Shown piece by piece: positions 32,386 to 51,806 of a DNA stretch of 64,000 nt. Origin of the DNA: an uncultured Rhodospirillales bacterium (GTDB lineage Bacteria > Pseudomonadota > Alphaproteobacteria > JAWKYA01). The notes below the pieces were generated by a model. The model had not been told where the DNA came from, did no database searches, and worked only from the letters and a program-made list of their open reading frames with translations. The DNA lies in the NCBI GenBank assembly GCA_964397465.1, contig CAYNIC010000011.1, positions 3,503-67,502 of the forward strand. The letters are read 5' to 3'. Position numbers and translations under genes: made by a program. Position 1 is the first letter of the stretch. Every line of letters begins with the position of its first letter.

Positions 32386-33687
32386 CTAAGGAGATCTCTT
32401 TTTCTGATCTTTGCTCTTAAACTTTAGTTTTGGCTGAGGATGGCGTGAGCCATACATCCATTTAGGGTCTATTATCAACTCAGGTTCTTTTTTGGGAGTC
32501 GCTGGTCTTGGAGGGAGAGAAAGCTGCATCGCTTTATCGCCTTGAGCAATATTTTTTAAATGATTTTTAAATAAGCTAACGTCACCAAAATAGTTTGGAT
32601 AAGCAATTTTCAGATTTGCAATCTTATCTATTTCTACCAAAACAACCTCAACCATTTTTTCATTTTCTCTCAATTCACTTTCAACCCTATTGTAAGACTC
32701 AGTAGCAGCAAGCGCTGTGTAGTAGGGGTCAAGATAGACGTAATTTGTAGCGTAATCATACTTAACAAGAAGGTGTGTTGCCTGAGTATTTTGAAGTTGA
32801 GCAGAGCTTGTTCCCTCGACTGCAAGGCTGACACCTTCCAGCAAATTAACAGCATTCAACACATGTGCTAGTTCCCTTATCTCTTCTCGGCGTTCATTAG
32901 CATTAGGTGTGTTAGGAACCGTCGGGCATTCTTCGTGTTCAGCAAACTCGGCTGACATTAATGTTAACAACCGAAGCCAGTTATGGTCGCCCTTACTATA
33001 TTTAAGTTCTTTTTTAATTATAAGACCTACAGATTCTACGGCTGTTGCCCAGGTATGTTGAAGTTTTGTTCGTATCTGAACTTCTATTTTTTTGCCATCG
33101 AAGGCCGTAGGCCGCTTTCCTTGGTAGCTAAAAATAATGTGGTGACTACGATAGCCATCATCTTTAGGTGAAACAATAAAATCTTTCTCACTGTGAAAAC
33201 TGTTAGAAAGATGATGAGTCAAAATATCGCTAATATTTTTTACGTCAGAAATACTTTTAACAATTGCTCTGCATCCGCCGATATCTTGAATCGTTTGCAG
33301 TTTTAAGCGAGTGAGCCTATTTAACTTGTCGCGAATTGACTGCATTCGTTTAAGTCTAGCCGCTACCAGGCCTTCTTGCTTATTGGCTCGTAGCAATGCT
33401 CTAATTTTACCTCGAATACTTCTCATAGGATAAGCATGAGCTTCCCGCCAGTTGTTAGCTATAAGGAAAGCATCGCGGACCTCGAAAGGTATATCGGTTC
33501 CTTCTGGGTGCAGATTTTTTACAGCAATTATTTTACCCGCCTTCTCTATATCGTTAAGCGAGAATTTAAGGTGTGGATAATCGTTCTCGTCAGCCAAGGA
33601 AGGCTCCAAATTAAGGATATCATCCTCCCAGGAAAAACACTTTTCCCGGGCATCTGAGGCTACTATAAGAAATGGTAGATTAGCCAT
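32386..33687 (-). CDS. RelA/SpoT (alarmone synthetase-like nucleotidyltransferase) domain protein with about 190-aa C-terminal extension; toxSAS-like
   Basis: IQDIGGCRAIV...DDGYRSHHIIF...KIEVQIRTKLQHTWATAVE are signature RelA_SpoT synthetase motifs. GC about 37%, in contrast to the 62% of neighbouring genes. Start placed at MANLPFL. Confidence 0.7.
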   Translation of the reverse strand: MANLPFLIVASDAREKCFSWEDDILNLEPSLADENDYPHLKFSLNDIEKAGKIIAVKNLHPEGTDIPFEVRDAFLIANNWREAHAYPMRSIRGKIRALLRANKQEGLVAARLKRMQSIRDKLNRLTRLKLQTIQDIGGCRAIVKSISDVKNISDILTHHLSNSFHSEKDFIVSPKDDGYRSHHIIFSYQGKRPTAFDGKKIEVQIRTKLQHTWATAVESVGLIIKKELKYSKGDHNWLRLLTLMSAEFAEHEECPTVPNTPNANERREEIRELAHVLNAVNLLEGVSLAVEGTSSAQLQNTQATHLLVKYDYATNYVYLDPYYTALAATESYNRVESELRENEKMVEVVLVEIDKIANLKIAYPNYFGDVSLFKNHLKNIAQGDKAMQLSLPPRPATPKKEPELIIDPKWMYGSRHPQPKLKFKSKDQKKRSP

Positions 33688-33724
33688 GAAATTCCTTTCT
33701 AAGAGATCAAGAATAATCCCTACC

Positions 33725-34345
33725 CTACCTACGCCCTGCATAAGGATCATGTAGAGCAGGTACAGTAACTTGTGACGTAGCGCCGCCGCCGTTGCGTTGG
33801 AAAAGTTTCTCGGCTAACCGCGCGATGCCACCGCCGTCGGGCAAGCTCAACGGGCCCGACTTATCGTGGCTGCGCTTATAGACATAGATGCCCAGAACGC
33901 CCAAAGCGACACTCCAACTGGTCGAGAGGTTGTCGAGGGCCGCAATCACCTCCACGGCAAACGCTGGTTTGATCGCGATCAGATAGGCAACCGCCCCCAT
34001 CTGTCCCAACCAGGTCACGGCGATGATATAACCAAAGGTGGGTCTCATGCGCCGCACGTAAGGATCGTCCGACGCAACCTCGCGGCGGATGGTGCGGTTG
34101 ACTTCGGTCAGTGTAACGGCATCCCGGTCGGCTTCGATCTGCGCCATGGTTTCCAGATGGCGGTTGGCCTCGTTTATTGCTTCGGGCGGAACCTCGCCCT
34201 TGCCGATGGCGTCGGTGACACGGCCTAAGGCGTCGGACGCTGCCTTGGCCAAAGGATGAGAGAGTTTACCAAGGGCAAATCCGACGAGTTTGGCAAGAAC
34301 CGGCAAGCCGATGCCGGCAAGAAGACTGGCAAACATTTTTGTCAC
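33725..34345 (-). CDS. putative holin (3-TM, GTA/phage type)
   Basis: Three predicted TM helices. Gene overlaps the endolysin stop (ATGA). Confidence 0.5.
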   Translation of the reverse strand: MTKMFASLLAGIGLPVLAKLVGFALGKLSHPLAKAASDALGRVTDAIGKGEVPPEAINEANRHLETMAQIEADRDAVTLTEVNRTIRREVASDDPYVRRMRPTFGYIIAVTWLGQMGAVAYLIAIKPAFAVEVIAALDNLSTSWSVALGVLGIYVYKRSHDKSGPLSLPDGGGIARLAEKLFQRNGGGATSQVTVPALHDPYAGRR

Positions 34346-34800
34346 TCCACATTGTTATAGAAAACATGGCGGCCGATGCGGGCCGAGGGGGTGCGGCCGT
34401 GGGACCAATAGGGGCTGATATGGCTTGCGTGGTAATGGGTGGCGCCGTTGGTCGGATCGGCCATGGTGCCGCCAAGCGCCTCGGCGGCGATGAGAAGCGC
34501 CAAACGAAACGCCGCATCGCTTTCATCCACGGTCAGTACCTTGATCCGGTTGGGATCGCCCACGTTCCAGCAGGAAAATTGATAGGCGGCAAGGCAGATC
34601 TCCCGCACCGACCGTGTCCGCTCGATCCCTTCGCGAGCCCGGCGGTTGATGATGACGGCGGCGATCGCGCGCATGCCGGCCTCGCCTTCGCTGCGCGCTT
34701 CGCCCCACAAAGTGCGGGCCAGGATGTCCCGTTCCCGCGCCGGTTCGGCCAAGGCCTGATCGATCCGCACCGCGGCGGGACTCAAAGTGCGACTCATCAT
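34342..34800 (-). CDS. cell-wall hydrolase (SleB/Hydrolase_2-type endolysin)
   Basis: TLWGEARSEGEAGMRAIAAVIINR...NGATHYH is a typical Hydrolase_2 family sequence. Confidence 0.75.
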   Translation of the reverse strand: MMSRTLSPAAVRIDQALAEPARERDILARTLWGEARSEGEAGMRAIAAVIINRRAREGIERTRSVREICLAAYQFSCWNVGDPNRIKVLTVDESDAAFRLALLIAAEALGGTMADPTNGATHYHASHISPYWSHGRTPSARIGRHVFYNNVE

Positions 34801-35108
34801 ACGGCTCCTTGTTTGGGAAACAGGGGAACATCCAGCTTGGCTTCGATGCGCAACAGGTGCGACGTTAACCGCCGCTCTACATCCTTCAGGTAGGCGATCG
34901 AGGCGTAGGATTTCGCCACTTCCAGTTTATAGGCGGCCAAGGTCTCGCGCAGTTGCGCATCCCCGGTGTGACATTGATGACGGAGGTGATCTAGTTTCTC
35001 TTCGCCATCGCGGCGGATGCGCCAGATGAACCAGAACAGACCGGCCAGGGTCGGCAGCTCGACCGCGGTGATCCACCACAACAGGGTCTCGGGCAAAAAG
35101 TTGCTCAT
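34797..35108 (-). CDS. phage membrane protein (N-terminal TM plus coiled coil; spanin/holin-associated?)
   Basis: MSNFLPETLLWWITAVELPTLAGLFWFIW is a TM helix, followed by a helical region. ATGA overlaps on both sides. Confidence 0.4.
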   Translation of the reverse strand: MSNFLPETLLWWITAVELPTLAGLFWFIWRIRRDGEEKLDHLRHQCHTGDAQLRETLAAYKLEVAKSYASIAYLKDVERRLTSHLLRIEAKLDVPLFPKQGAV

Positions 35109-35434
35109 AGGGATGATCCGTTTGCAGAAGGTAAGGTTGGCGCCGGTGCGTGGGTGTCGCTTTGCCAGTTTTTTCCTTCGGTGATGATGCAAGATCGGCT
35201 GGAGGTGAGGCGCGCCACGGCAACCCAACTTGCCGTCATCGGCGCGATGTAAACATCGATGGTCGTGCCCTCCGCCGTGGTGCCGCGGCCTAGACGGATA
35301 AATCCCTTGGCGGGGGCGAGGGCTTGATCAAGCTCCGCCGTCGATCCGCACCGCGGTGCTGCAAGAGTAAGCGACGGCAAGGCAAGGATCATCGCGCCAA
35401 GCGTCAGCCCGGCGATACTGTGACAGTAGCGCAT
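35105..35434 (-). CDS. hypothetical secreted phage protein
   Basis: Signal peptide MRYCHSIAGLTLGAMILALPSLTLA. Placed between terL and the lysis genes. Confidence 0.35.
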   Translation of the reverse strand: MRYCHSIAGLTLGAMILALPSLTLAAPRCGSTAELDQALAPAKGFIRLGRGTTAEGTTIDVYIAPMTASWVAVARLTSSRSCIITEGKNWQSDTHAPAPTLPSANGSSL

Positions 35435-35466
35435 AAAAATTCTCCTCAAGATGGGGTTAGAAAAAC

Positions 35467-36960
35467 CTACGGTTCGAAATCGGTTGCGGCGGCGGTGTTG
35501 GTGGCGCCCGGTCGCCAATCGCGTTTGGTCCGCGGCGCAAAGGCGGCGGCAATTCGCACCGGCTCTGCTGAAATGGCGCCGGCCACCGCATCCAGGGCGT
35601 CATCGGGACGTTTGCGACTGGTCGCCGCGGGCCGCCAGTCGCGCATCTGTTGAATAAACGGTGTCTGCCACAGGCTGCGATGGGCGTATAAGGTTCCCGC
35701 CGCCAAGGGCACATCAAGCGCATCCAAAATGCGTTGGGTTTTGGGTTTGCTGCTGTGGGCTTCGACCACCACGGTTGGAATCTTCGCCTCACTCAAGGCG
35801 TGACGTAAAAGTCCGGGCAAGAACCGGCCGATGCCGTTGGTCTCGATGGTCACTGTGGGCAGATGAAGTCCGCGCAAGAATTCGGCCGCTTGGCGGCAGA
35901 GCTGCGTTGCCTCGTCGACTTGCGGCAAGGCGGTCATGTCGTGGTTCAGATAGGTCAGGCGATGGAGATAGAAATTTCCTATCGCATCGGAAAACACCGC
36001 GGCAATCACGCTGCCGTCGCCCTTTTCCGCGGCGCCAAAGGCCGGATCCCACCAACAGCTCGCCGAGACCAGTCGCGTTTGACCCAACATCAGCACCGGC
36101 ATCCGGTTGGCCTCGCTGTAAACCAACTCGCCGTCATAGGGACGCAAGCGATCGGGGTTGAGACGCGCCGCCGTGACGTTGCTGGGCCGCAGCAACATCT
36201 GCGCCGCGAACTTCGCCTCGCCGCTGCGCCGCCGCATCTTGGCAATCTCGGTTTTGCCATAGCGTTCCGGCCAGATGCTGCGGCCCCGACGATCGAGCAA
36301 CGGCATCTCCATCCGTTTGAAGTTGCCCAGAAACGGTATGTCTTCACCCAATTCGCGCCGCGCTTCGGTGGCATAGATAGAGTAATAACTGTGGGGCGTG
36401 CCGATATAGATCTGGGTTCCGCCCGGCACCAGGATATAGGGAATTTCACTCAACCGGTCGCGCAGGTCCTGACGCTTGGGCGGGGTATCGCAGGTATTGG
36501 GAACCTCCACATCATCGCACAGGATCACATCGGCCCGGCTGCCGGTGACATTGGCCGAGATGCCGCGGCCCAGCATTGACGGATCGCGCAGCTCGCCCGG
36601 TCGTTTGACCGTAAACTGATCCATCGCCCAGGACGAAGTGCGGCGCGGTTTTAATCCCTTGGTAAAGGGATGGCGCTCGATCAGCCGTTTCACATTGCGC
36701 ACCATCTTGCAGGCAAGATCGTGCTCCGCCGCCAGAACCAAGATCCGCAGCATCGGATTCTTGGTAAACAACCAAGCACAGAATAATCCGCAGATGGTCG
36801 ACTTGCCGCTTGACCGAAACGCCAGCAGTACCAGTTCATGATCATGGGCTGCCCACCGGGCCGCCAGCCACCGCGCCATGCGGAGTTGCACCCGCGGTGT
36901 GGTTTGGCCCTGATGCTCGTTCCACATCCAGACGAATTCGGGAAAGCTGGGCGCGGTCAT
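35467..36960 (-). CDS. phage terminase large subunit
   Basis: Walker A LLAFRSSGKST, Walker B ILCDDVE and a C-terminal RNaseH-like nuclease region. Occupies the T7 gp19 position. Confidence 0.85.
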   Translation of the reverse strand: MTAPSFPEFVWMWNEHQGQTTPRVQLRMARWLAARWAAHDHELVLLAFRSSGKSTICGLFCAWLFTKNPMLRILVLAAEHDLACKMVRNVKRLIERHPFTKGLKPRRTSSWAMDQFTVKRPGELRDPSMLGRGISANVTGSRADVILCDDVEVPNTCDTPPKRQDLRDRLSEIPYILVPGGTQIYIGTPHSYYSIYATEARRELGEDIPFLGNFKRMEMPLLDRRGRSIWPERYGKTEIAKMRRRSGEAKFAAQMLLRPSNVTAARLNPDRLRPYDGELVYSEANRMPVLMLGQTRLVSASCWWDPAFGAAEKGDGSVIAAVFSDAIGNFYLHRLTYLNHDMTALPQVDEATQLCRQAAEFLRGLHLPTVTIETNGIGRFLPGLLRHALSEAKIPTVVVEAHSSKPKTQRILDALDVPLAAGTLYAHRSLWQTPFIQQMRDWRPAATSRKRPDDALDAVAGAISAEPVRIAAAFAPRTKRDWRPGATNTAAATDFEP

Positions 36961-37319
36961 GACAGATCATCATCCTCGGCATCATCGTCCGGCACGGTAT
37001 CGTCGGTATCCGCCACCGCATCCCGCGCCCGGGTCAACAGCGACGCCAAGGCATCGTCGCTTTCCGCTTCTTGATGATCCACCGCCCACCGCGCCAGACG
37101 TAACAGCCCATCCAAATGTCCTAGGGCGGATTTGCACGCAGTATGATAGGCGGAAAAACCCTTGGCGGTGTTGTCGCAGGGTGCGGCGACAAACTGGGTA
37201 TAGCTGTCCAAGGCGGTGGCCAATAAAACGGGAAGATCCTGGGCGATTTTTTGCCGGGTGGACTCGAGGCCCTTTTGGGTGCGGTTTTTGCTGGAAAGTT
37301 TTGATACCGAAACTGTCAC
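36957..37319 (-). CDS. hypothetical phage protein with acidic C-terminus (in the position of the terminase small subunit)
   Basis: 120 aa. ATGA overlap with terL. No recognisable motif. Confidence 0.35.
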   Translation of the reverse strand: MTVSVSKLSSKNRTQKGLESTRQKIAQDLPVLLATALDSYTQFVAAPCDNTAKGFSAYHTACKSALGHLDGLLRLARWAVDHQEAESDDALASLLTRARDAVADTDDTVPDDDAEDDDLS

Positions 37320-37354
37320 GTCATGTCCTTTCGAGGGAAAACAAAGGCAAGAAA

Positions 37355-37585
37355 TTATCGGGGCGGCAGTGTGCCGGTGATTCCAGTGGCGATTTTTAGA
37401 AACTGTTCCAGCCGCGCCTCGACCTCAGCCAATCGGGTTTCCAGGGGCAGGGAAGATGCCGGTGAAGAAGGTGATGAATCCGGCGGCGCAATGAAAACCG
37501 CCGAGGCGGTTTCGTCGTTTTTCAGGATATAGTTCTCGTCCTCCCATCGAACGCTAAGACCGCGGTTACTGTAGATATAGGGCAT
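37355..37585 (-). CDS. hypothetical phage protein
   Basis: 76-aa ORF between the tail fiber and the terminase module. Confidence 0.3.
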   Translation of the reverse strand: MPYIYSNRGLSVRWEDENYILKNDETASAVFIAPPDSSPSSPASSLPLETRLAEVEARLEQFLKIATGITGTLPPR

Positions 37586-37594
37586 GGAACCTCC

Positions 37595-40087: not shown

Positions 40088-40111
40088 GAGAGTGTCTCCT
40101 TATAGAGGCGC

Positions 40112-40603
40112 TTAACGGATCAGGGATATTTGCTGAATGGCGTAGTGGGTTCCGGTGTCCAGCAGGCTGCGGCCGATGGCGTTCGCCGGCGACAAGCGAC
40201 GCTCGCGGTCCAAAATCTTGGCGCGCTGCTGCGTTTGGGCGATTGCGGCGCCGTTGTCGGCGAGGTCAGCATCCCGTTTGGCCAAGGCTTGTTCCGTCGC
40301 GTCGGCATGACGCGATTGCATCGCCTGTTGCAAGGCCGCCGTACTGCCGCCGTCATCATTGATGCCGCGCGCCGCCGCACTGGTGCGGGCGCCGCCCAAC
40401 TCGCGGCGTAACCCAAGGCGCCGGGTCGCTTGATCGGTCTCGAAGTTGTCGGCGATCAGCGAGCGTCGCCGCTGCAAGGACGCCAGTTGCTGCTGGGCAG
40501 CGAGGCTTTGCGCTTTCGCTTCGGCCCGGCGGGCGGGAAGATTCAGCGCCGTTTGGGCTGCTGTGGCGGCAAGCTGTGGAAGTAACGGGGTTGACGCGGC
40601 CAT
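40112..40603 (-). CDS. hypothetical virion protein (T7 gp13/gp14 position)
   Basis: 163-aa Ala/Gln-rich protein between the tubular protein B gene and the tail fiber gene. One-nt overlap coupling. Confidence 0.4.
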   Translation of the reverse strand: MAASTPLLPQLAATAAQTALNLPARRAEAKAQSLAAQQQLASLQRRRSLIADNFETDQATRRLGLRRELGGARTSAAARGINDDGGSTAALQQAMQSRHADATEQALAKRDADLADNGAAIAQTQQRAKILDRERRLSPANAIGRSLLDTGTHYAIQQISLIR

Positions 40604-42534
40604 CAGTCATTCACCTTAAGTTCGCAGTTGACGGAAAGAAGCGTGAAGGAAAAAGGATTGCTTTGGGTAATGCGCCACAGCGGTTCCAGCGCGCCGCGAT
40701 GCCAGCCCAAGGCCCGCACCGTGACATCGCCGGTATAGGCCGCCGGCGGTGAGTCAAGATTGACGCCGCCGATCGTCTGCAACGGAACCAATCTTGGTCC
40801 GCGGCCCACATCAACCATCAAGGCGGGGGTGTCTTTGATGCGGAAGGTGGCGCGGATCAGCCGCAAGGGCTCACCCTGAAGTTCTCCGTTGTCCGACGGC
40901 GGCAGGGGCTCGATGCTGTGGGTAAAGGCAAGACCTACTTCGATGCGGGTGGCGGTGGCGGCCAGAGAAATCACCCCGCCTTTGACCTTATAAAGGCCGA
41001 GCGGCCGGCCATCGGCGATGACCGTCACCCATTTGTCGTTGAGATGGGACAGCCCGCCCCAAATCGATTGGGCTTGTTCGGTTTCGCCCAACAAGGCGGC
41101 ATCACTGTTAAGTTGCGGATCAAATTTTTCGATCCGAAAATCGGCAAAACGTTTGGCCAAGGCATAGACGTCGCCGCCCACCACGGCGACGGCATGAAAC
41201 TCGCCGTCGGTTTCCAACCGCGTCCAGGCGGTGACATTCTCCGAGCGATAAAGGGTAAGGGCGCCGAGGCCGCCGTCGCTCATCACCACGTAAAGCACCC
41301 GCGACTTATCGGCGTAATCCATGTCGATCGGATCCGTCACCAGATGCGGAGCCAGCACCGAGAGGTCGCGGGCTTGGTAAGCCGCCTCGGCATCGGTATA
41401 AAGAAGTTCGCGAATTTGCCGGCCGCTGCGCGCGGCAAACAGGGTTGCGCCTTCAACCGCGCGGGGTGGTACGGTGCGATCAGGGTGTGAGCCGACGGTG
41501 GTTTGCCGTTTCGCCTGGACCGTGGCGGGAGATAACGGCTCGCCGGTGATCTGCCACTCGCCGCCGGTGGTCAAAACAAACAGCGTCAGACCGGAATGCA
41601 TCCCGCGAATGGCGTCGACCTGTTCCGACAACAATCCGAACTCGATCGCATCGTCATCCTCGCCGATGCCAAGATCAAAGTTGAACAGATCCGAAGTCCG
41701 CGACATCCAGATCCGGTTGGGGATCGACCGGGCGCCGCCGAACACCAACCGGTCTTGGGCGAAGGCGACGCTGGCGGGCCAGCCGCGATAGGGTGAAAAC
41801 GCCTGCTCGGACCAATCGGTGATGGCGGTGGTGTTGGGCAAGGACAGGGCCAGCGTCACCTTCACCGCCGTTGCCGAGGTGACCTCGATGATGGCGACAT
41901 CCTGGTTGGGCAGGCGTAAGTATGCGCCCAGCTGCGCCGGATCAAACACCGGTGCCGATGCGGTCAAGGTAATGGTGCCAGAGGTGCCGCTGGGCGTTAA
42001 GGTCACGGTATCTCCGGCGAAACGATAGAACGGATGATAGCGGCGTTTGGTTGTCGTATTGGCGACAAAGGTTAGATCCGCCAAAACCCAGGTTTGCGGC
42101 CCTAGACGGGTGAGGGTCTTTGGCGCAACATCGGGATGACAAATAAACAACGTGTCCGCACTTTGCGCCCAAGTCAGACGCTTGATCTGATCCGCCGTCC
42201 ACGGCGTGGCCACGGTGGCGATGACCGCATCATGGTGCAGGATGGTGATCTGCTGATGGGTGACGACCAACAGATAAGTCTGCTCGGCATTAAAGGCGAA
42301 ACCGATCAGACGGCCGGAGCCCGCGGCGATGGCGATATGACGCAGGCCAGGCCGGCGCGTCACGCCTCCGGTCGGCTGCACCAAAATATTGCGCAGTTTT
42401 TTTGCGGCGTTGCTGTACGACGCAAGATCGCCCCGGCCGTAAAGATCGCTCGATACTTCGCCGGCGGTGAAATTATTTTTGAGAACCCGCATGCGTCCCA
42501 TCTCAGCCTCCTCCAGTCCAGCCGGTAAGATCAA
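40603..42534 (-). CDS. tail tubular protein B (T7 gp12-like)
   Basis: N-terminus MRVLKNNFTAGEVSS...VQPTGGVTRRPGL parallels gp12 (NLKGGISQQP...GLQKRPP). Size 643 aa. Synteny after the tubular protein A gene. Confidence 0.65.
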   Translation of the reverse strand: MILPAGLEEAEMGRMRVLKNNFTAGEVSSDLYGRGDLASYSNAAKKLRNILVQPTGGVTRRPGLRHIAIAAGSGRLIGFAFNAEQTYLLVVTHQQITILHHDAVIATVATPWTADQIKRLTWAQSADTLFICHPDVAPKTLTRLGPQTWVLADLTFVANTTTKRRYHPFYRFAGDTVTLTPSGTSGTITLTASAPVFDPAQLGAYLRLPNQDVAIIEVTSATAVKVTLALSLPNTTAITDWSEQAFSPYRGWPASVAFAQDRLVFGGARSIPNRIWMSRTSDLFNFDLGIGEDDDAIEFGLLSEQVDAIRGMHSGLTLFVLTTGGEWQITGEPLSPATVQAKRQTTVGSHPDRTVPPRAVEGATLFAARSGRQIRELLYTDAEAAYQARDLSVLAPHLVTDPIDMDYADKSRVLYVVMSDGGLGALTLYRSENVTAWTRLETDGEFHAVAVVGGDVYALAKRFADFRIEKFDPQLNSDAALLGETEQAQSIWGGLSHLNDKWVTVIADGRPLGLYKVKGGVISLAATATRIEVGLAFTHSIEPLPPSDNGELQGEPLRLIRATFRIKDTPALMVDVGRGPRLVPLQTIGGVNLDSPPAAYTGDVTVRALGWHRGALEPLWRITQSNPFSFTLLSVNCELKVND

Positions 42535-43114
42535 ATCCGCCGGCGGTTTCTTCCTGGGCGTCGATCAGACGGGCGCGGCGAAATTCTTCCTCGGCGGCAC
42601 GGGCCAAGGCTTCGGCCCGGGATGAATTCTCGGTCAAAGGAATGCAGAACTCGGCCGCCAGGCGCGCGATCAGCACATGATCAAAGAACGGCGGAAAATC
42701 CGCTTCGCCGGGGCGAAAAATATAGGTCAGGATCACTTCATCGGCGTGGGCGTGAAGCCGCCGCTCGGCGATGCGGTAGGTAAGCCCGCGCCCGCGACGG
42801 CCGTTACCGGCGGAAAGGGCGCGAAGATAATCGCCGGGCAATTGAAACGCATAGGCATAGTCGGCGGGGGGCGAGGCCGCCAAGGGCGCAAGCCGCCGTT
42901 GCGCCGTGGCGAAATTCCACGGATGGGCGGAGAGCAGGGCGTCCCGCGTCGACGGATAAAGCAGGCTGGCCACCTCGGCGGCAGCGGAGCCTTCGTCAAA
43001 TCCTAAAATAGGCGCGGCGCCGATTTTCACCAGCGCTCGGGCACAAAGTTGAATGGCGCTCAGAGCCATGGCTCGTTGCCTTTCCCATAAAAAAGCTCCG
43101 CGGCGATGAACCAT
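42503..43114 (-). CDS. tail tubular protein A (T7 gp11-like)
   Basis: 203 aa. MALSAIQLCARALVKIGAAPILGFDEGSAAAEVASLLY...HPWNFA parallels the gp11 N-terminal pattern. Confidence 0.6.
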   Translation of the reverse strand: MVHRRGAFLWERQRAMALSAIQLCARALVKIGAAPILGFDEGSAAAEVASLLYPSTRDALLSAHPWNFATAQRRLAPLAASPPADYAYAFQLPGDYLRALSAGNGRRGRGLTYRIAERRLHAHADEVILTYIFRPGEADFPPFFDHVLIARLAAEFCIPLTENSSRAEALARAAEEEFRRARLIDAQEETAGGFDLTGWTGGG

Positions 43115-43152
43115 CGCCGGCGGAGCCGATCACAACAGAGAAAATAGATTTA

Positions 43153-43410
43153 TTAGTCGGTGTTCACGCTGCCGACGGCGGTCATGTCGGCGACATCGAC
43201 CGTGCCGTTCTGGCTGGAAGCGATCAGAAGAATGCCGGCGCCGCCGTTGACATTGGCGAGAATCATATCGCCTTTGCGCAGCATATCTACGGCGGGATTA
43301 AAATAGCCGTTGGTATCGACGATGTCGGCGGTATCGGTCGAGGCATAATGCCAAAGGGTAAAGCCGTTGGCATAGGCCAGCACCGAAAGGTTTCTGGCAA
43401 GATAGGCCAT
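43153..43410 (-). CDS. hypothetical phage protein
   Basis: 85-aa ORF between the capsid and tubular A genes. Confidence 0.35.
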   Translation of the reverse strand: MAYLARNLSVLAYANGFTLWHYASTDTADIVDTNGYFNPAVDMLRKGDMILANVNGGAGILLIASSQNGTVDVADMTAVGSVNTD

Positions 43411-43448
43411 GAAGATCTCCTTTATCTCTTTAAGCTAAGGGTGAAATT

Positions 43449-44273
43449 TTACGCTTCGCTGCACGGCAGGGTGACAAGACCGGTGCCATCGACCAGCACC
43501 GCGCCCAAGGACAGCGAGCAGCTGACGAACCACGCGGCCCGATCGTTGTGATAGGCGATGTCGGTGTTGACTTCCGATCCCACCGCGAGGGCAAGGGCGG
43601 TCTTGTGCCACCAATGGCACAGGCGGTGACCATTGCCGTCGAGGCCAAGGCCGGAATGGGGCATCCACAAGGTTCCCAGCCAGCGCTTGGCCTGGGTGCC
43701 GCGCCAGGGCAGATCGTCGCTGCCGACATAATCGGCATTGGCGAATTCCTGGATCATCAAGAGATCGGACCATTGTTTCCATCCCACCACGGCGTAACGA
43801 TCTCCGTCATCGGGCACATCGTTGCCGCCCAGGATGCCGAAGGCCTCCAGCACCTTTTGTTTGGTGAGACCGCCGCTAACCGTCGGAGTCAGATTGGCCG
43901 AGGTGTTCATCTGCGCCAAAATCAGCTCGTCGGTTTTGCGGCCCAAGGCATAGGCGCCGGCATTGGCCACCACCGCCCGCTCTTCGTTCTCGGTCTTAAG
44001 TTCGTCCAGGGCGTCCACCCATTCGCCGGCATAGTAATCCGACAGAAAACATTCGATCGGCGCGTGATCGATGTTCATCACCGGCACCTTGCCGTGTCGC
44101 GCTTTGGTCGAAGCGCTGCCCTTGCCGACTTTTTGAAACACGGTGGAGGCGCCTTTAACGCTGCCCTTGGCGCGAACGCAAGGGCGGAGCTTGGCGCCCG
44201 TACGCTGATAGGCTTCGTGAACTTCCTTTTCGAACTGCTTGATGAAAGCAGCATCAATGGAGGGTTTATTCAT
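43449..44273 (-). CDS. major capsid protein (T7-like podovirus type)
   Basis: 274 aa. Position between scaffold and tail tubular genes. Weak pattern similarity to gp10. Confidence 0.6.
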   Translation of the reverse strand: MNKPSIDAAFIKQFEKEVHEAYQRTGAKLRPCVRAKGSVKGASTVFQKVGKGSASTKARHGKVPVMNIDHAPIECFLSDYYAGEWVDALDELKTENEERAVVANAGAYALGRKTDELILAQMNTSANLTPTVSGGLTKQKVLEAFGILGGNDVPDDGDRYAVVGWKQWSDLLMIQEFANADYVGSDDLPWRGTQAKRWLGTLWMPHSGLGLDGNGHRLCHWWHKTALALAVGSEVNTDIAYHNDRAAWFVSCSLSLGAVLVDGTGLVTLPCSEA

Positions 44274-44394
44274 GGTGATCCTTTCAGAAAAAATAAACGG
44301 TTGAGTCCGGCCACGGGTTATCCGCGCAGGGGCGGGCTTGCAGCCGGATGAAGGAAAAAGACGGGCCGCCGCAACGGTTGTCCGTAATTAAGAC

Positions 44395-45132
44395 TTATGA
44401 ACTGGGGTAAAGACGGCGGAAGCCCTCGCTGACCTCGGCCACAAAGGCGGGGTCTTTGTGCTTCCAATAGCGGGGATCGCGCATCATCTTGGTCAGATCC
44501 TCTTCGGTTAAACTTGCAACCGCGGTGCCGCCACCGCCAAGCCGCGGCGGCGATCCGCTTTGCATCATGGCGTGAAGCGCCAGAACGCCGTCGCTGGTCG
44601 AGGCCAAGGCGTCGAACACGTCGCGCGGCAGGTGGGCCGTGCCCCAGGCGTTGAGTTGCCGGGCGATTTCGCGCCATGCCGTATCGCCGCCGAAATGGGC
44701 GATCAGTCGCTCGCGCTGTTTTTGCGCCTCGAATTCCGACGCCAGATCGGTGATCGCCGGCAGCATGCGTTCGCCGGCGAGATCGTAAACCAGCTGAGCT
44801 TGGCGCGGCGTGAAGTGGGCCGCGTGCAGGCGACCGTTGACATCCGGATCAATGTCCAGAAAATCGGTGCTAAGATTGATCTCGTAAGCATCGGGTGTGT
44901 CGGGGATACCGAGCGCCCGGCGGAAGGCTGCGGTCTCCGTCTCGTCGGCATCATCTCGCGGCACCCGCACCATGGTCGATAGTTTTCGCTCCAGCTCCAA
45001 ATAGGATCGCGCCAGTTTCGCCACATCGGGCGCGCCGGTTTGCGGGTCCAAAAATTTCTGGGGAATTTGCACCGTGTCGGATGAAGGGGCGGCGGGCGTA
45101 TCCGATGGTGTGGTCAGTAAACTCTCGGTCAT
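44395..45132 (-). CDS. capsid scaffolding protein (probable)
   Basis: Acidic, helical protein starting MTESLLTT. Position between portal and capsid. The long N-terminal extension of the ORF is Arg/Pro-rich and not credible. Confidence 0.45.
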   Translation of the reverse strand: MTESLLTTPSDTPAAPSSDTVQIPQKFLDPQTGAPDVAKLARSYLELERKLSTMVRVPRDDADETETAAFRRALGIPDTPDAYEINLSTDFLDIDPDVNGRLHAAHFTPRQAQLVYDLAGERMLPAITDLASEFEAQKQRERLIAHFGGDTAWREIARQLNAWGTAHLPRDVFDALASTSDGVLALHAMMQSGSPPRLGGGGTAVASLTEEDLTKMMRDPRYWKHKDPAFVAEVSEGFRRLYPSS

Positions 45133-45136
45133 GGCA

Positions 45137-46669
45137 TTATCCTTTTGTCGACGAAAGGGTTTGCGCCTCAACAGAGGCAGGTAAAATTTCAGAAGAAATC
45201 GCTGCTGGAACATCGGGACGTAACAGGCTCGCCGGCAGGTCCAGCATCTTGGCGGCCCATCTGGCGGCGGCCGGCGCATCCAAGGTCGCGGCGGCGTCCG
45301 GCCCCAACTGCTTGGCGATGTCCAGCCACGACAAGGCGCCTTGCGCCTCCAACTGGGCTTGCCGCCGCGCCAAGGGCGATCGGTATTGCAAGGTGATGGT
45401 GCGACCATCCAAGGTCAGGTTCGGCAATTCGCCGCGCCGGGATAAAATCGCCAAGGCCCGCGCCACCAACGGCGTCAAAAGTTCGGCCTGCAGCCGGCCG
45501 TAGGTTGCGCCCAATAACCGCGCGGTCTCCGCCGCCCGGTGCAGAACTTCGGTTGCGGTCATGCCCGGCGTCGCCACACTTGCCAGGCGGTCGGTCAGCA
45601 GACTGGAGCGGATCGCTTGCCGTAGGGTGGCAAGAGTCAAATCCGAGACATTGAAATTTCCCGGCACCTGCAAGGGCGTCAGGCCCGATGAGCCGACCGC
45701 CTTGGGAATGATGGTGCCCGGCACCAACCTCACCGTCGCCGGATTTAAAACACCGTCGTCATCGGCCTGCCAAATGCCGGTGACGGCGATGGCGGCGTTT
45801 TTCAGCGTCAACTCAACCACCTTGTTGGCGGTTTTGATATCGGGCAATGCCTTCATCACCGGCGAGCGGCCATAGGCCTCGCCCGGCGCTTTCATCCAGC
45901 GAAACGACAAAAAGGGCGATTGATCCAATCGCGCCTTGGCCAAAAGATGCGGGCCGTTGAATTTCTCCGCACCGCCTTCCAACACCGCGACGTAATCGTA
46001 ACCGTTGCCGGTCTCGCGGGGGACCACCGCTTCGATCACCGTGTAAAGACGATCGCTGTCGGTTGCGGCGGAAGCGGGAATCTCCGCTGCGGGAAAGCGG
46101 CTGTGCAGTTGCAGCCGGCTCAACCGATTGCGACGATAGGCGATATCCAACCTTCCCTCGGCGCCTTCCTCCAACACCACATCCCACAACGGCACGGCGG
46201 CAAAGCGAAAGGCGCTGGGTTGTCCCGGGGCGGTTTCTTCAAAGGACAAACAAGCCGTGCCCGACACCACCAAATCCAGAAAGCATTGATGAATCTCCAC
46301 CGCAAAATTCGAGCGATCGAAATGCTGCTGCAGAATCTCGGCGGCGCGATCGAGTTTCGGCGCCAGGTCGCCGTGCAGGTGTTCGGGAATTTCCCGGCCG
46401 GGGGCAAAGCCGAACCATCTGGCCCAGGGCGGCGTCAGTTCAGCCAGCAAACTGGCCGCCAATTGATCCACCGCATCGGGGGCGGTGCCGTCGAACAACC
46501 GCTCGCGGCTGGCGGCGGATAGACTGGAGGGCCCCGCTCCGGCAAAGGGCGTCTCATCCCGCGACGGCAAACTGTAGGCATAGCAGTCGCGCCACACCGA
46601 CTCCCAGGCGCTGCGCTGCATCTTGGCGCGGTGAAACCGGGCCATCACGCTTTCCGGCGTCATGATCAC
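45137..46669 (-). CDS. portal (head-to-tail connector) protein, T7 gp8-like
   Basis: 510 aa. N-terminal VMARFHRAKMQRSAWESVWRDCYAYSLPSR parallels the gp8 N-terminus. Position 5' of scaffold. Confidence 0.75.
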   Translation of the reverse strand: MIMTPESVMARFHRAKMQRSAWESVWRDCYAYSLPSRDETPFAGAGPSSLSAASRERLFDGTAPDAVDQLAASLLAELTPPWARWFGFAPGREIPEHLHGDLAPKLDRAAEILQQHFDRSNFAVEIHQCFLDLVVSGTACLSFEETAPGQPSAFRFAAVPLWDVVLEEGAEGRLDIAYRRNRLSRLQLHSRFPAAEIPASAATDSDRLYTVIEAVVPRETGNGYDYVAVLEGGAEKFNGPHLLAKARLDQSPFLSFRWMKAPGEAYGRSPVMKALPDIKTANKVVELTLKNAAIAVTGIWQADDDGVLNPATVRLVPGTIIPKAVGSSGLTPLQVPGNFNVSDLTLATLRQAIRSSLLTDRLASVATPGMTATEVLHRAAETARLLGATYGRLQAELLTPLVARALAILSRRGELPNLTLDGRTITLQYRSPLARRQAQLEAQGALSWLDIAKQLGPDAAATLDAPAAARWAAKMLDLPASLLRPDVPAAISSEILPASVEAQTLSSTKG

Positions 46670-46983
46670 TCTCCCAATAAAATTTTGCGGGCGGGGATAA
46701 GGCGCGCCGATTTGCCGGCGGTAATGGCAGGCTGCTCCAGCACGCCGGTCAGTCCGGTTTTGACGGTGGTGGCAAGGCCGCGGCGAATCCGGCGGTGCGG
46801 GTGAAGATCTTCCTTCACCGCGGCGGATAGGGGCGGCGGTGCCGGAACCGGCGGTGGGGTGGGGGCGATAAAGCGGCTGGCCATCAAGGATCTCCCTGAA
46901 GCAGGTGGAACGAACGGGACAAAGGGTGGAAAAAACAAAACCCGCCGCGGTTTCCCGGGGCGGGTGAGAAGAGGCGGAGTCAT
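46666..46983 (-). CDS. hypothetical phage protein (first gene of structural operon)
   Basis: Pro-rich small ORF. ATGA overlap with the portal gene. Start may be the internal MASRF. Confidence 0.3.
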   Translation of the reverse strand: MTPPLLTRPGKPRRVLFFPPFVPFVPPASGRSLMASRFIAPTPPPVPAPPPLSAAVKEDLHPHRRIRRGLATTVKTGLTGVLEQPAITAGKSARLIPARKILLGE

Positions 46984-46998
46984 GGCCTCATGTGTTCC

Positions 46999-47027
46999 TA
47001 TATAGTTCTCTTTTCAGTTCCTGTCAA
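46999..47027 (-). promoter_or_regulatory. consensus sigma70-type promoter reading into the structural operon
   Basis: On the minus strand: TTGACA, a 17-nt spacer, then TATATA. Confidence 0.5.
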
Positions 47028-47109
47028 CGGTATTTTTTCTTAAAAAATGAAAAAGAAGCTGGCCGCCTGTGGGCAAGGTTTCCTTCCGGCTGAATCCCCA
47101 GCGTCTATT

Positions 47110-47562
47110 TCAAGAACGGCTTACCCGACCCGCGGGATTTAAAAGACGTCCCGCGTTCCTGTCCGTCAGGGATAAAAATAACCGCCATGGGGTCCAAATA
47201 AATCGGCGCCGCAGGTGCAAAATATTTTTTACCACGGCAACGCAGGTCATCGGCCGCAGCAGGTTAAGACAAGATCGATGGCGCCGCGGGGTGCGGGTCA
47301 TCGGCATCATCACGGGAATCGGCACCGCACCCTTTGCGGTATAGAATCGAATCATCTCCGCAACGGAGTAGGGAGGAAGGAGTTTGATCATCAGACGGCC
47401 GCACAGGGGATCCACCATGATCCATCCGCTGGCGATTCGATAAAGGATAAAGCAATGGCGGAAGCCTCGTTTCAACAGATAAAACCATGGAAATTCCAGC
47501 TCGCCGCGAAATACCACGATCGCCGTAACCCCGCGGCGCGGACGATCAGAGTCGGCGGTCAT
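47110..47562 (-). CDS. hypothetical protein (early/regulatory region of element)
   Basis: 150 aa starting MTADSDRP. ATGA overlap with the upstream gene. The longer 244-aa ORF has an Arg-rich, non-credible extension. Confidence 0.4.
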   Translation of the reverse strand: MTADSDRPRRGVTAIVVFRGELEFPWFYLLKRGFRHCFILYRIASGWIMVDPLCGRLMIKLLPPYSVAEMIRFYTAKGAVPIPVMMPMTRTPRRHRSCLNLLRPMTCVAVVKNILHLRRRFIWTPWRLFLSLTDRNAGRLLNPAGRVSRS

Positions 47563-47924
47563 CGGACGATTCCCTTGGCCCGCAGCGGCGGCGTCAAACG
47601 CTCTAACGCTTCGCGCCACAGCTTGGCGAAGTTCGCCTCTTCGCCCCGGGCATAGGGCGACGGAGCGCGGCCCATGCGGCCGTAGTGCATCAGGATTTTG
47701 ACATGAGCCCGGCGCAGGCGCCGTCGCTCGACCAGCCGCACCAGCTCGCGCACCACGTCGTCGGGCTCGCAGGGTTTGGGGGTGGATTTTCCCGCCTCGA
47801 ACCGGGCGCCGTCGGCGCGGGCGGTCAGGCAGGCGACGCACCAAAACCAGCAGGCTAAACTCGTCGGGAAAGGCTCCCCAATCGTTGTTCCCTTGCCGGT
47901 GGTGATAAGCTTCAACTGGCCCAT
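47559..47924 (-). CDS. hypothetical protein, possible Cro/CII-like regulator
   Basis: 121 aa, divergently transcribed from the repressor gene. Cys cluster CWFWCVAC. Confidence 0.4.
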   Translation of the reverse strand: MGQLKLITTGKGTTIGEPFPTSLACWFWCVACLTARADGARFEAGKSTPKPCEPDDVVRELVRLVERRRLRRAHVKILMHYGRMGRAPSPYARGEEANFAKLWREALERLTPPLRAKGIVR

Positions 47925-47969
47925 GGCTTTGCTCCCTTGAAGGGCTTTTTTCTCTCGCGGTAAACGAGT

Positions 47970-47984
47970 GTTCTATTATTGTTC
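47970..47984 (+). promoter_or_regulatory. alphaproteobacterial LexA-type SOS box (GTTC-N7-GTTC)
   Basis: GTTCtattattGTTC lies in the divergent intergenic region between the regulator gene and the repressor gene. A TTCAC-N7-GTGAA palindrome sits at 48058-48074. Confidence 0.5.
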
Positions 47985-48084
47985 GCTATTAGAGGGAGAG
48001 TCTATATGCACAAATACCCATGTCAAGCCTGAATCAGAATTTGATCCTAGTGACATTTTTCACCTGAATTGTGAAGGTGTTCCC

Positions 48085-48717
48085 ATGTTGAGACATGCGG
48101 ATATATGGCGGGGGATTGACCGTTTGGCTGCGACACATAATTTGTCGCCCTCGGGCTTGGCTCGAAAGTCAGGATTGGATCCCACCACCTTTAACAAATC
48201 AAAACGGGTTGCCCGGGATGGCAAGCCGCGTTGGCCGACGACGGAAAGCCTGGCGAAGATTCTGTCGGCCACCGGCGCCGGCATGAACGAATTCGTCTCA
48301 TTGATGAGCGAGACTCCCGGCACCTCGGTAACCCAGCGGATCCCGGTCATCGGCTATACCCAAGCGGGTCAGGCCGGTTACTTCGACGACGCCGGTTATC
48401 CCGCGGGCAAGGGCTGGGACGAGGTGGAGTTCCCCGATGTCGGCGATCCTCACGTTTATGCGCTGGAGATCAACGGCGACAGCATGATGCCGGTTTATCG
48501 CGACGGCGACGTGGTTGTGGTCTCGCCCCAGGCGCAGATCCGCCGCAACGACCGGGTGGTGCTGAAGACCGTCGAGGGCGAGGTGATGGCCAAGGTGCTC
48601 AGCCGCCGGTCGGCCAAGAAGATCGATCTGCATTCGCTCAACACCGATTTCCCCGATCGCAGCCTGGACAGCGACGACGTGCTGTGGATCGCGCGGATTA
48701 TCTGGGCCAGCCAATAG
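48085..48717 (+). CDS. phage repressor, HTH plus S24 (LexA-like) peptidase domain
   Basis: N-terminal HTH region (SPSGLARKSGLDPTTFNK). C-terminal S24 domain with GDSM and a following Lys (ALEINGDSMMPVYRDGDVVVV...K). Confidence 0.8.
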   Translation: MLRHADIWRGIDRLAATHNLSPSGLARKSGLDPTTFNKSKRVARDGKPRWPTTESLAKILSATGAGMNEFVSLMSETPGTSVTQRIPVIGYTQAGQAGYFDDAGYPAGKGWDEVEFPDVGDPHVYALEINGDSMMPVYRDGDVVVVSPQAQIRRNDRVVLKTVEGEVMAKVLSRRSAKKIDLHSLNTDFPDRSLDSDDVLWIARIIWASQ

Positions 48718-48952: not shown

Positions 48953-49813
48953 ATGGCGAAGAGTCTAAGTAACGAGGATAATTGTCAGACCTTCGTCGAT
49001 GGCCGGTGGATCGCGGGCAATCCGCCGCTGATGCATGCTATGACCCATGCGGTGTGGTTGGGATCGGTGGTGTTCGACGGCGCGCGGGCCTTCGACGGCG
49101 TGGCGCCCGATCTTGATCTTCATTGCCATCGGGTCGTCAATTCGGCATCGGTGTTGGGCTTGGCGCCGACCCTGACCGCGACGGCGATCGAAGATCTGGC
49201 GCGGGACGGCATCAAAAGATTTGCGCCGAACACCCCGCTCTATATCCGGCCGATGTTCTTTGCCGAGGACGGGATGCTGGCGCCCGATCCCGCCACCACC
49301 AAATTCGCCCTGGTGATGTGGGAGGATCCCTTGCCGGCGCCGACCGGATTTTCCGCAATTGTCACACCGATGCGGCGCCCGCCGCCCGAAGCGGCGCCTT
49401 CGGAAGCCAAAGCGTCTTGTCATTATCCCAATCTGGGTCGCGCGGTGCGCTGGGCAAAGGAACGCGGCTTTGACAACGGCGTGGTATTGGATCCCGCCGG
49501 CAAGATCGCCGAATTCGCTTCATCGAATATTTTCTTCGTGCAGGACGGGGTGGTGGTGACGCCGGCGGCCAACGGCACTTTCCTGAATGGCGTCACGCGG
49601 CGCCGCGTGTTATCGCTGTTGCGCGCTGATGGCGTGAAGGTTGAGGAACGGGTAGTTGACCCGTCAGAGCTTGATCGCGCGTCCGAAGTTTTCTCCACCG
49701 GCAACTATGCCAAGGTCATGCCGGTGACGCGGATGAACGATCGCAGCCTGCAGCCGGGACCGCTGTTCCGCCGCGCCCGCGAGCTCTATTGGGGTTATGC
49801 ACATGGGAAGTAA
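48953..49813 (+). CDS. class IV aminotransferase (branched-chain amino acid / D-amino acid aminotransferase family)
   Basis: Fold-type IV PLP enzyme pattern (FxxDG...Y...R..F, conserved E...K region). 286 aa. Confidence 0.75.
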   Translation: MAKSLSNEDNCQTFVDGRWIAGNPPLMHAMTHAVWLGSVVFDGARAFDGVAPDLDLHCHRVVNSASVLGLAPTLTATAIEDLARDGIKRFAPNTPLYIRPMFFAEDGMLAPDPATTKFALVMWEDPLPAPTGFSAIVTPMRRPPPEAAPSEAKASCHYPNLGRAVRWAKERGFDNGVVLDPAGKIAEFASSNIFFVQDGVVVTPAANGTFLNGVTRRRVLSLLRADGVKVEERVVDPSELDRASEVFSTGNYAKVMPVTRMNDRSLQPGPLFRRARELYWGYAHGK

Positions 49814-50627: not shown

Positions 50628-50765
50628 CAGATGATATAAACATCAGCACCGCCATACGTCGTGTCAATGTCCTGAGATCGACTATCCGCCGGTGCCCTTC
50701 AGCAATAAACCCTTTGCCAGCCTCAGCCCGCTTAAGTAGCATTGCGCGGAAGGGATTTTCGTCTC

Positions 50766-51779: not shown

Positions 51780-51806
51780 GCGCCGCAGCGCGCCTGTTGC
51801 AGGTGC

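Follow-up and report, generated by a model that had tools for sequence, protein, structure and literature searches.

The locus described here raises the question of whether a compact set of phage virion and lysis genes, enclosed by host genes on a bacterial chromosome, is the residue of a virus or a particle-forming machine that the host has kept. It lies in a 64,000-nucleotide stretch of DNA from an uncultured Rhodospirillales bacterium (contig CAYNIC010000011.1, positions 3,503 to 67,502; hereafter, the window), in which the element occupies positions 33725-48717 (~15 kb) and consists of a minus-strand operon and a divergent plus-strand repressor gene. It is very likely that this element is domesticated and selectively maintained. 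The best overall explanation, to which we assign a probability of roughly 0.6, is an ancient, chromosomally fixed, podovirus-derived cluster working in the manner proposed below. The element probably represents a new kind of gene transfer agent (GTA) that is induced by DNA damage, with the odds about even that gene transfer is the function for which it is kept. No published description of the element was found in the open-access full-text literature.

Gene content and boundaries

Family assignments were made from Pfam, PHROG, and NCBIfam profile matches (Table 1), and these back the portal, scaffold, capsid, tubular A and B, large terminase (TerL), and lysis assignments of a preliminary description of this DNA, so that the T7-like gene order reported there is real. 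The genes run in the order repressor, p121, orf150, p72, portal, scaffold, major capsid, p85, tubular A, tubular B, gp14-like, fiber, p76, p120, TerL, two spanin-like genes, endolysin, and holin. Several of the overlapping junctions are of the ATGA type, as had been noted; the start of orf150, for example, overlaps the stop of p121 in this way. The T7-type virion module is complete (gp8, gp9, gp11, gp12, gp14 at the family level, and gp19-type TerL families), and the element is predicted from its sequence to keep everything needed for a DNA-filled, short-tailed particle and for cell lysis.

Host genes bound the element on both sides, with a branched-chain aminotransferase gene on the right (48953-49813; PRK13356 above cutoff) and a DUF952-pyrD fusion on the left (29887-31335), in agreement with the preliminary description. 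The interval between them is fully accounted for and holds no integrase, DNA polymerase, primase, helicase, or phage RNA polymerase, which is also as first described. The range originally given to the element, 32386-48717, stands for 33725-48717 but not for 32386-33750, where a RelA/SpoT-type gene lies outside it. The third-codon-position GC content (GC3) of the element genes (0.60-0.74) equals that of the neighboring host genes, and that of the flanking islands is 0.27-0.39.

The internal core had been described as absent. No proteins of gp15/gp16 size were found in the window, but a gp14-like protein is present, and the core is reduced rather than wholly absent because the gene previously listed as a small virion protein encodes this gp14-like internal protein. 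Six of 13 members of its family match PF24072 (best E-value 3.7e-7), a relative matches phrog_418 (internal virion protein), and iterated hidden Markov model (HMM) searches place the family in 140 loci (E ~1e-9 for the window member). It is the sole ejection-type protein in the element. The earlier statement that no small terminase (TerS) is clear holds insofar as p120 has no detectable TerS similarity, but a conserved 120-amino-acid (aa) gene does occupy the TerS position, and p120 is accordingly a candidate small terminase by position only. Its family occurs in 78 loci; the family profile had no PDB sequence match, hhalign gave a probability of 5% against the TerS of phage Piluca, and a single-sequence homolog search returned only eight close relatives.

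Distribution and synteny in related genomes

One genome per GTDB species was scanned, which yielded at least 538 loci, and the best 80 were fetched with 10-kb flanks; relatives were compared by tblastn of every window protein and by iterated HMM searches, and Pfam-annotated gene calls were made for four of them. At least 538 species have the cluster in their genomes, among them members of Azospirillum, Elioraea, Magnetospirillum, Terasakiella, and Micavibrio. By NCBI taxonomy, the carriers within Rhodospirillales belong to Azospirillaceae, Terasakiellaceae, Magnetospirillum, and Caenispirillum, and those beyond it to Acetobacterales (Elioraea, Belnapia) and to Micavibrio, a deep alphaproteobacterial lineage (PMC5721377). 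A common order (repressor, p121, orf150, small gene, portal, Bbp19-like, scaffold, capsid, p85, tubular A, tubular B, gp14-like, spike, p120, TerL, sp103, lysin, holin) extends across Azospirillum, Elioraea, Belnapia, Magnetospirillum, Terasakiella, Caenispirillum, and Micavibrio-type metagenome-assembled genomes (MAGs).

Proteins of the related loci are 45-70% identical to those of the window (52-67% for the portal and 53-70% for tubular A). The window element is equidistant (53-59%) from all 62 loci compared, and element copies are mutually 53-98% identical over concatenated proteins. The host accordingly belongs to a deep uncultured lineage; its GroEL stands alone in its 90% identity cluster, and the sequence derives from JGI metagenome 3300013121, as part of a 623-kb contig. 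Tubular B has more than 1800 database homologs of nearly constant length, and its best 120 matches have 50-54% identity, bar five close relatives at 84-93%; those that carry a name belong to Azospirillum, Skermanella, Micavibrio, and Rhodospirillales MAGs, and many lie on megabase contigs. The distal tail is more variable. A pectate-lyase-type spike of ~673 aa occurs in 50 of 72 loci and retains 46-48% identity over its whole length between Azospirillum and Micavibrio-type lineages, while the window fiber shares only its N-terminus with other loci, its first ~150 aa being a conserved tail-attachment part and the distal part lineage-specific. The spike is old, and its distal part has been replaced in other lineages, including that of the window. 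As a separate observation, MAG OFTM66 holds two complete element copies (L015 and L070) on two contigs, which could represent a true duplication or a mixed bin.

Chromosomal position, integrity, and selection

In 29 of the 80 fetched loci (Azospirillum, Elioraea, Belnapia, and others) pyrD adjoins the lysis end of the element, and the aminotransferase flank of the window recurs in Terasakiella. The Pfam families matched most often by 140 flanking ORFs (open reading frames) were NAD kinase, dihydroorotate dehydrogenase, EamA, NhaA, EAL, and isocitrate dehydrogenase; the 25 commonest listed of the 50 Pfam families in the flanks include no integrase or replication family, and neither do the 25 commonest listed of the 41 in the interior. 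Two loci contain, between them, one insertion sequence and one resolvase, and one split locus has a serine recombinase ~3.5 kb outside it. Searches for att-like direct repeats flanking the element gave short imperfect chance repeats only, and none of 72,556 plasmids carries a copy. The IMG/VR database has only 9-18-kb "provirus" fragments of the same cluster, with no complete phage genome among the matches listed.

Host genes are nested within the cluster in several lineages. A HAMP-PAS-GGDEF-EAL gene and a separate PRC gene lie between scaffold and capsid in A. brasilense-type species and A. soli (83-97% identity), in other lineages this junction contains PilZ genes, and peptidoglycan-binding proteins and an ammonium transporter are inserted elsewhere. 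The cluster has also been split or rearranged: in Hwanghaeella and Pacificispira the capsid gene directly adjoins pyrD, in inverted orientation, the A. doebereinerae locus runs from the capsid gene, which Fur and SodC genes precede, to TerL, and gene order is reshuffled in a type represented by three loci (L040, L046, L060). Nested host genes together with these splits and rearrangements reflect long residence in the chromosome. Two side observations concern the same sites. Cyclic di-GMP signaling genes (for the HAMP-PAS-GGDEF-EAL protein and PilZ proteins), with a PRC-barrel gene, recur at the scaffold/capsid junction (L085 4871-7710; L004, L012, L018, L021; L084 7048-7440), which may be chance insertion at a permissive site or may point to a regulatory link. 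Split or reshuffled loci with host genes directly upstream of the capsid gene (L007 6272-9053, L035 6405-9062, L170 6097-7859, and L086) occur in Hwanghaeella, Pacificispira, A. doebereinerae, and a Rhodospirillales MAG type.

Across 26 loci, the pairwise identities of tubular B and of TerL correlate closely with those of pyrD (Pearson 0.97, Spearman 0.85-0.89), a relationship drawn from a linked gene and from phylogenetically non-independent pairs, and tubular B evolves at about the rate of pyrD. The ratio of nonsynonymous to synonymous substitution rates (dN/dS), obtained by the Nei-Gojobori method from close pairs, is 0.06 for the capsid gene, 0.09 for the portal, 0.11 for tubular B, 0.16 for tubular A, and 0.22 for TerL, with 0.15 for the host reference pyrD. 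Intact genes were found in 154 of 155 loci for tubular B, 125 of 127 for TerL, and 119 of 123 for the capsid. The element is vertically inherited in Rhodospirillales-grade Alphaproteobacteria and Micavibrio. The preliminary description had set beforehand a test of domestication, namely conserved synteny and purifying selection without replication genes, and this is the pattern observed; neither contiguous integrase, replication, and core genes nor general decay in orthologous copies was seen. The case for domestication thus draws on conserved positions, nested host genes, co-divergence with pyrD, low dN/dS, and intactness, together with the distance from known phages.

Relationship to free phages

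The closest isolated phages are pelagiphage Hodr, Yersinia phages YeP4-6, Methylophilales phage MEP301, Piluca, and BPP-1. Pelagiphages of the Hodr/HTVC019P type, YeP4-6, Piluca, and BPP-1 share with the element homologous portal, scaffold, capsid, post-capsid protein, tubular A and B, fiber N-terminus, TerL, and endolysin in the same structural gene order, and they also carry a CI-like S24 repressor. However, temperate podoviruses of this kind have genomes of 34-42 kb compared to ~15 kb for the element, and they are only 22-49% identical to it, while element copies from different orders are 49-70% identical. Hodr and the window share 45% identity in the capsid, 35% in the portal, 33% in tubular B, and 49% in the lysin, and the maximum identity to any isolated phage is 33% for tubular B and 45% for the capsid.

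Integrase and replication genes are annotated in YeP5 and Piluca (the genes of Hodr are all annotated as hypothetical), and two or three proteins of 680-1250 aa follow tubular B in YeP5, Piluca, and Hodr. Between tubular B and the spike, the 70 element loci compared contain only the gp14-like gene and small ORFs, none of them larger than ~520 aa. Of the traits of a T7-like phage, the window thus lacks an own RNA polymerase, an own DNA polymerase, and the gp15/gp16 core, and of those of a temperate prophage, the element lacks an integrase and replication module beside its structural genes as well as att sites. On the explanation favored here, the ancestor was a temperate podovirus with a T7-type structural module, resembling phages of the Hodr, YeP4-6, Piluca, and BPP-1 kind, and the cluster has since lost its integrase, replication genes, and large ejection proteins. 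A 5,084-base record from a human fecal sample, filed as "Bacteriophage sp." (MT838907.1), encodes a capsid protein 54% identical to that of the window, which is closer than the capsid of any isolated phage; it is probably a fragment of the element from a gut alphaproteobacterium, filed as phage.

Control region

The divergent repressor matches PF00717 (E-value 5.5e-23) and scores only 32 bits against the LexA model TIGR00498, for which the cutoff is 111; it is for this reason a paralog and not LexA itself. The GDSM serine motif, the lysine motif, and the upstream Ala-Gly, which are the motifs predicted for a self-cleaving S24 repressor, are present in the window protein and in 31-32 of 46 relatives, and the repressor adjoins the element in 31 related loci. 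The motif GTTC-N7-GTTC, the consensus of the alphaproteobacterial LexA box (PMC3091678), has two matches only in the 64-kb window. One lies in the intergenic region between repressor and p121, by far the commonest location of the motif in related loci, where 32 of 47 loci carry it against 0.6 expected; the other, upstream of the portal, has the same position in only five related loci. Beside the first box is a promoter-like TTGACA-16-TAGACT (48026-47999, minus strand), sigma-70-like and facing p121. The preliminary description called the element repressor-controlled and host-promoter driven; the former is supported, at the level of sequence, by the conserved S24 repressor and SOS box, and the latter corresponds to a consensus match only.

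The two genes that follow, previously described as regulators, appear to differ in nature. Neither p121 nor orf150 has a Pfam, PHROG, or PDB sequence match, and Foldseek against PDB gave no match for p121, but p121 is a candidate antiterminator whose predicted fold resembles those of Q and AlpA (a moderate fold match). The moderate-confidence model of orf150 is similar to hydrolases of the papain-like or permuted NlpC/P60 kind, TseH and YiiX among them, and its family has invariant His and Cys residues; orf150 is thus probably a papain-like cysteine hydrolase and not a regulator, and a role as a virion enzyme that degrades the wall, or as a processing protease, is conceivable. The arrangement as a whole resembles the logic of AlpR-AlpA and of lambdoid CI/Q, in which a LexA-like repressor stands beside a Q/AlpA-fold protein heading a long operon that ends in lysis genes. 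DNA damage is the input to those systems and would be expected to be so here, but AlpR-AlpA controls lysis genes only, while the operon of the element encodes a whole virion.

Proposed mode of action

The steps that we infer are the triggering by DNA damage, antitermination, the packaging of host DNA, its transfer, and periplasmic delivery. DNA damage would lead to RecA-stimulated self-cleavage of the S24 repressor, to removal of host LexA from the GTTC-N7-GTTC box, or to both; p121 would then be made, and RNA polymerase would read through the ~14-kb operon. Portal, scaffold, and capsid proteins would form proheads, which T7-type TerL, possibly with p120 as a non-specific partner, would fill with cellular DNA. 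Tubular A and B, the gp14-like protein, and the fiber would complete the particle, and holin, endolysin, and spanin-like proteins would release it. At the recipient, only the outer membrane and wall would be breached, by a gp14-like pore and perhaps the orf150 hydrolase and with no gp15/gp16 channel, so that DNA would reach the periplasm and be taken over by the recipient's own uptake and recombination machinery, as in the Rhodobacter capsulatus GTA (RcGTA). In T7, the ejection channel crosses the outer membrane through gp14, and its passage across periplasm and inner membrane is formed by gp15 and gp16; retention of gp14 with loss of proteins of gp15/gp16 size suggests periplasmic delivery.

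Weighing of the explanations

The element is a phage-derived structural cluster without replication or integration genes of its own, and it shows vertical descent and purifying selection, as expected of a GTA. Since it neither replicates nor integrates itself and yet its packaging machine is under selection, cellular DNA would be the cargo, and a GTA is the simplest reading. That reading competes with a program of SOS-triggered altruistic lysis or particle release, analogous to AlpR-AlpA-controlled self-lysis and pyocin release in Pseudomonas, in which the benefit would be something other than gene transfer, such as the release of DNA or public goods, the killing of competitors by adsorbing particles, or decoys against phages. 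The S24 repressor and Q/AlpA-like first gene look like AlpR/AlpA, the SOS box is conserved, the lysis cassette is complete, and the loss of gp15/gp16 might indicate that the particle need no longer deliver DNA. However, portal, scaffold, capsid, and T7-type TerL are intact and under purifying selection, which makes sense only if DNA-filled heads matter; lysis alone needs only ~2 kb; and the killing particles known to us, the tailocins, are headless. A benefit of this other kind is the main rival reading, which we regard as unlikely, though worth serious consideration. A phage satellite of the capsid-forming phage-inducible chromosomal island kind, spreading with a helper, would share the small size (~15 kb), the own capsid and packaging genes, and the repressor, but satellites are mobile and patchily distributed, while the element is vertically inherited, has its own tail (tubular A/B and fiber) and lysis genes, and lacks an integrase, replication initiator, and att sites, which leaves this origin highly improbable.

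Two further readings take the locus to be simply a prophage. A normal inducible podovirus, with integration and replication genes elsewhere or with recurrent targeting beside pyrD, would agree with the temperate lifestyle and CI-like repressor of the related free phages and with the provirus calls of the IMG/VR pipelines; it is nonetheless very improbable given that both window flanks are host genes around a fully accounted interval, that att repeats are lacking, that no integrase or replication family is among the commonest listed in flanks or interior, that the IMG/VR matches are 9-18-kb fragments with no complete phage genome among those listed, and that the element has host genes nested inside it and diverges as its hosts do. 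Prophage remnants decay within species-level time, so a functionless, decaying remnant is hard to reconcile with the same gene set in at least 538 species, dN/dS of 0.06-0.22, large genes more than 95% intact, divergence in step with a housekeeping gene, and positions conserved across orders; the lack of integrase and replication genes and the few truncated or split copies are what such a remnant would explain, and we consider it scarcely credible. Several observations do count against a domesticated, SOS-induced GTA. The exact SOS box is missing from Azospirillum loci, the correlation with pyrD has the linkage and non-independence mentioned above, no small terminase was recognized in the element, and some copies are partly decayed, such as the truncated capsid gene of A. 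oryzae A2P. In addition, the capsid protein has the same length as that of Hodr, a 34-kb phage, and the head might for this reason hold more than the 15-kb cluster, in which case the element could depart from a classical GTA. With respect to decay, four loci (L026 8850-9014, from A. oryzae A2P, L087, L106, and L109) keep only the last 55-75 capsid codons and another A. oryzae strain (L034) has a complete capsid gene; some lineages are evidently losing the element.

Comparison with known gene transfer agents

RcGTA (Rhodogtaviriformidae; found in Rhodobacterales, Caulobacterales, Hyphomicrobiales, and Sphingomonadales) is likewise a chromosomal head, tail, and lysis cluster of ~15 kb without integrase or replication genes, inherited vertically under purifying selection over order-level time, with dispersed loci in some genomes and a holin of the same family (PF11351). 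However, its HK97-type head with protease and its long siphovirus tail differ from the T7-type module and predicted short tail of the element, the viral ancestors of the two are unrelated, and RcGTA is regulated by CtrA, GafA, and RogA whereas the element has an S24 repressor, an SOS box, and a Q/AlpA-like protein; the function of RcGTA has been demonstrated, while that of the element is predicted. Pfam, PHROG, and NCBIfam scans of the window gave no prohead protease, tape measure, or tail tube families, and an RcGTA-type identity was rejected, T7-type families being present throughout and only the holin family shared. Large RcGTA clusters are absent from Rhodospirillales and Micavibrio (PMC5721377), and, as seen from the best 80 of at least 538 loci, the distributions of RcGTA and the element are roughly complementary. 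Antitermination control has a parallel in the Caulobacter GTA, which is governed by a repressor and an antiterminator (PMC11150451), although the proteins are unrelated.

The Bartonella GTA (BaGTA; Bartogtaviriformidae) is also a particle cluster domesticated in Alphaproteobacteria, its main block being ~14 kb long. Its particles are described as tailless or short-tailed in early reports (PMC9662315), so the earlier remark that known GTAs are sipho- or myo-like needs to be amended. Its gene order is TerL-portal-capsid (PMC3610622), compared to portal through to TerL in the element, protein sizes differ, and its run-off replication module has no equivalent in the element. The TerL of Sulfitobacter phage pCB2047-C nests within the BaGTA clade (PMC9662315), and the TerL, portal, and capsid of this phage have no BLASTP similarity to the element; a BaGTA-type identity was rejected by way of this proxy and the published BaGTA layout. 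A comparative genomics study of Azospirillum reported a "phage-related lysozyme" to be the only phage gene of the genus core, in identical context in four strains, and mentioned ~10-kb DNA particles suspected to be GTAs (PMC3899980); either of these may correspond to the present element.

We regard the element as domesticated independently of the known GTAs, from which its virion plan and its control circuit differ. To our knowledge, few independent phage-to-GTA domestications have been described, and the ancestors of those whose genes are known were long-tailed or otherwise unrelated phages. Our most specific proposal is tentative, its chances being slightly below even: a GTA family domesticated once in an early ancestor of Rhodospirillales-grade Alphaproteobacteria and Micavibrio, switched on by the SOS response through a LexA-like repressor and a Q/AlpA-like antiterminator, delivering DNA only to the periplasm because gp15 and gp16 were discarded, roughly complementary in range to RcGTA, and the first short-tailed, T7-type GTA with known genes. 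If this is correct, a new GTA family with a different virion plan exists in hundreds of species, including model and agricultural bacteria (Azospirillum, Magnetospirillum) and the predator Micavibrio; it would take the vacant place in deep alphaproteobacterial lineages from which large RcGTA clusters are absent, tie particle release directly to DNA damage, and serve as a natural experiment to show which ejection proteins a podovirus can dispense with when the recipient takes up the DNA. Virus-prediction pipelines count these loci as proviruses, and estimates of prophage content are inflated for these taxa as a result.

Feature map and smaller genes

Table 1. Features of the element in window coordinates, in the order of the operon.
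Feature	Position	Strand	Evidence and remarks
S24 (LexA/CI-like) repressor	48082..48717	+	PF00717, phrog_4; ORF open from 47968, likely start Met 48082
SOS (LexA) box GTTC-N7-GTTC	47970..47984		Repressor/p121 intergenic region; motif match
p121, candidate Q/AlpA-like antiterminator	47559..47924	-	First gene of the leftward operon
orf150, 150 aa, probable papain-like (permuted NlpC/P60-type) cysteine hydrolase	47110..47562	-	
Second GTTC-N7-GTTC box	46994..47008		Upstream of p72/portal genes
p72, 72 aa, Pro-rich	46666..46884	-	Just upstream of portal; weak phrog_831 match
Portal (T7 gp8 type)	45137..46669	-	PF12236 full length, E 4.8e-122; phrog_332
Scaffold (T7 gp9 type), 245 aa	44395..45135	-	PF05396, E 1.3e-13
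Major capsid protein	43449..44273	-	PF19821, E 2.7e-72; phrog_3437
p85, small protein 3' of capsid gene	43153..43410	-	phrog_18004, E 7e-19
Tail tubular A (gp11 type, adaptor)	42503..43114	-	phrog_394, E 4e-47
Tail tubular B (gp12 type, nozzle)	40603..42501	-	phrog_376, E 7e-143
gp14-like internal virion protein, 163 aa	40112..40603	-	PF24072, E 1.7e-4
Tail fiber or spike, 830 aa	37595..40087	-	phrog_1640 at residues 11-122; CBM_5_12; weak Collar match
p76, small ORF	37355..37585	-	Called as gene
p120, helical, acidic tail, 120 aa	36957..37319	-	phrog_31793, E 1e-20; overlaps TerL start
Large terminase, T7 type	35467..36960	-	NF033889 (termin_lrg_T7), 426 bits vs cutoff 150; phrog_38, E 3e-79
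sp109, 109 aa, signal-peptide-like N-terminus	35105..35434	-	Weak phrog_25396 match
sp103, one transmembrane (TM) helix and coiled coil	34797..35108	-	phrog_29007, E 2.4e-33
Endolysin, SleB-type cell wall hydrolase	34342..34800	-	PF07486, E 3.5e-19; phrog_938
Holin, three TM helices	33725..34345	-	PF11351 GTA_holin_3TM, E 2.6e-11, above cutoff; phrog_3427

Among the smaller genes, p85 belongs to a family found in 141 loci, a gene of the same size occupies the same position in Hodr, and its product is possibly a head accessory protein. The sp103 family occurs in 113 loci and is a candidate inner spanin component, with sp109, which is not conserved in other loci, as the candidate outer one. No homologs of p72 were detected in related loci, and p76 has no family match and no detected homologs in other loci. 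Most relatives have a Bbp19-like gene (PF25181) between portal and scaffold (L085 3650-3922); it was not detected in the window, where portal and scaffold abut (45135-45137), or in Elioraea-type loci. Plus-strand ORFs at 34339-34893, 36959-37399, and 44560-44982 overlap the endolysin, p120, and scaffold genes in antisense; their tblastn matches appear only as shadows of the sense genes, as is typical of high-GC DNA, and they are for this reason not considered genes.

Neighboring genes

Between the holin and pyrD lies the low-GC RelA/SpoT-domain gene (32386-33750, minus strand; GC3 0.35), which matches phrog_4773 (E-value 4e-82) and the PADLOC candidate defense family PDC-S33 (E-value 3e-104) and is absent at this position in related loci. 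It is probably a recently acquired toxSAS-like defense gene, an insertion outside the element, and a 269-aa gene separates it from pyrD. On the other side, a low-GC island (49830-53800; GC 0.38-0.50, GC3 0.27-0.47 for most ORFs) extends between the aminotransferase gene and a DinG-type helicase gene (54178-57009). None of its ORFs has a family match except for a WYL-like C-terminus in 50742-51779, and it may be a defense or mobile island. The pyrD product of the window (29887-31335) is a 482-aa protein with an N-terminal DUF952 domain, and Azospirillum sp. OGB3 has DUF952 and pyrD as two neighboring, unfused genes (L085 17740-19172).

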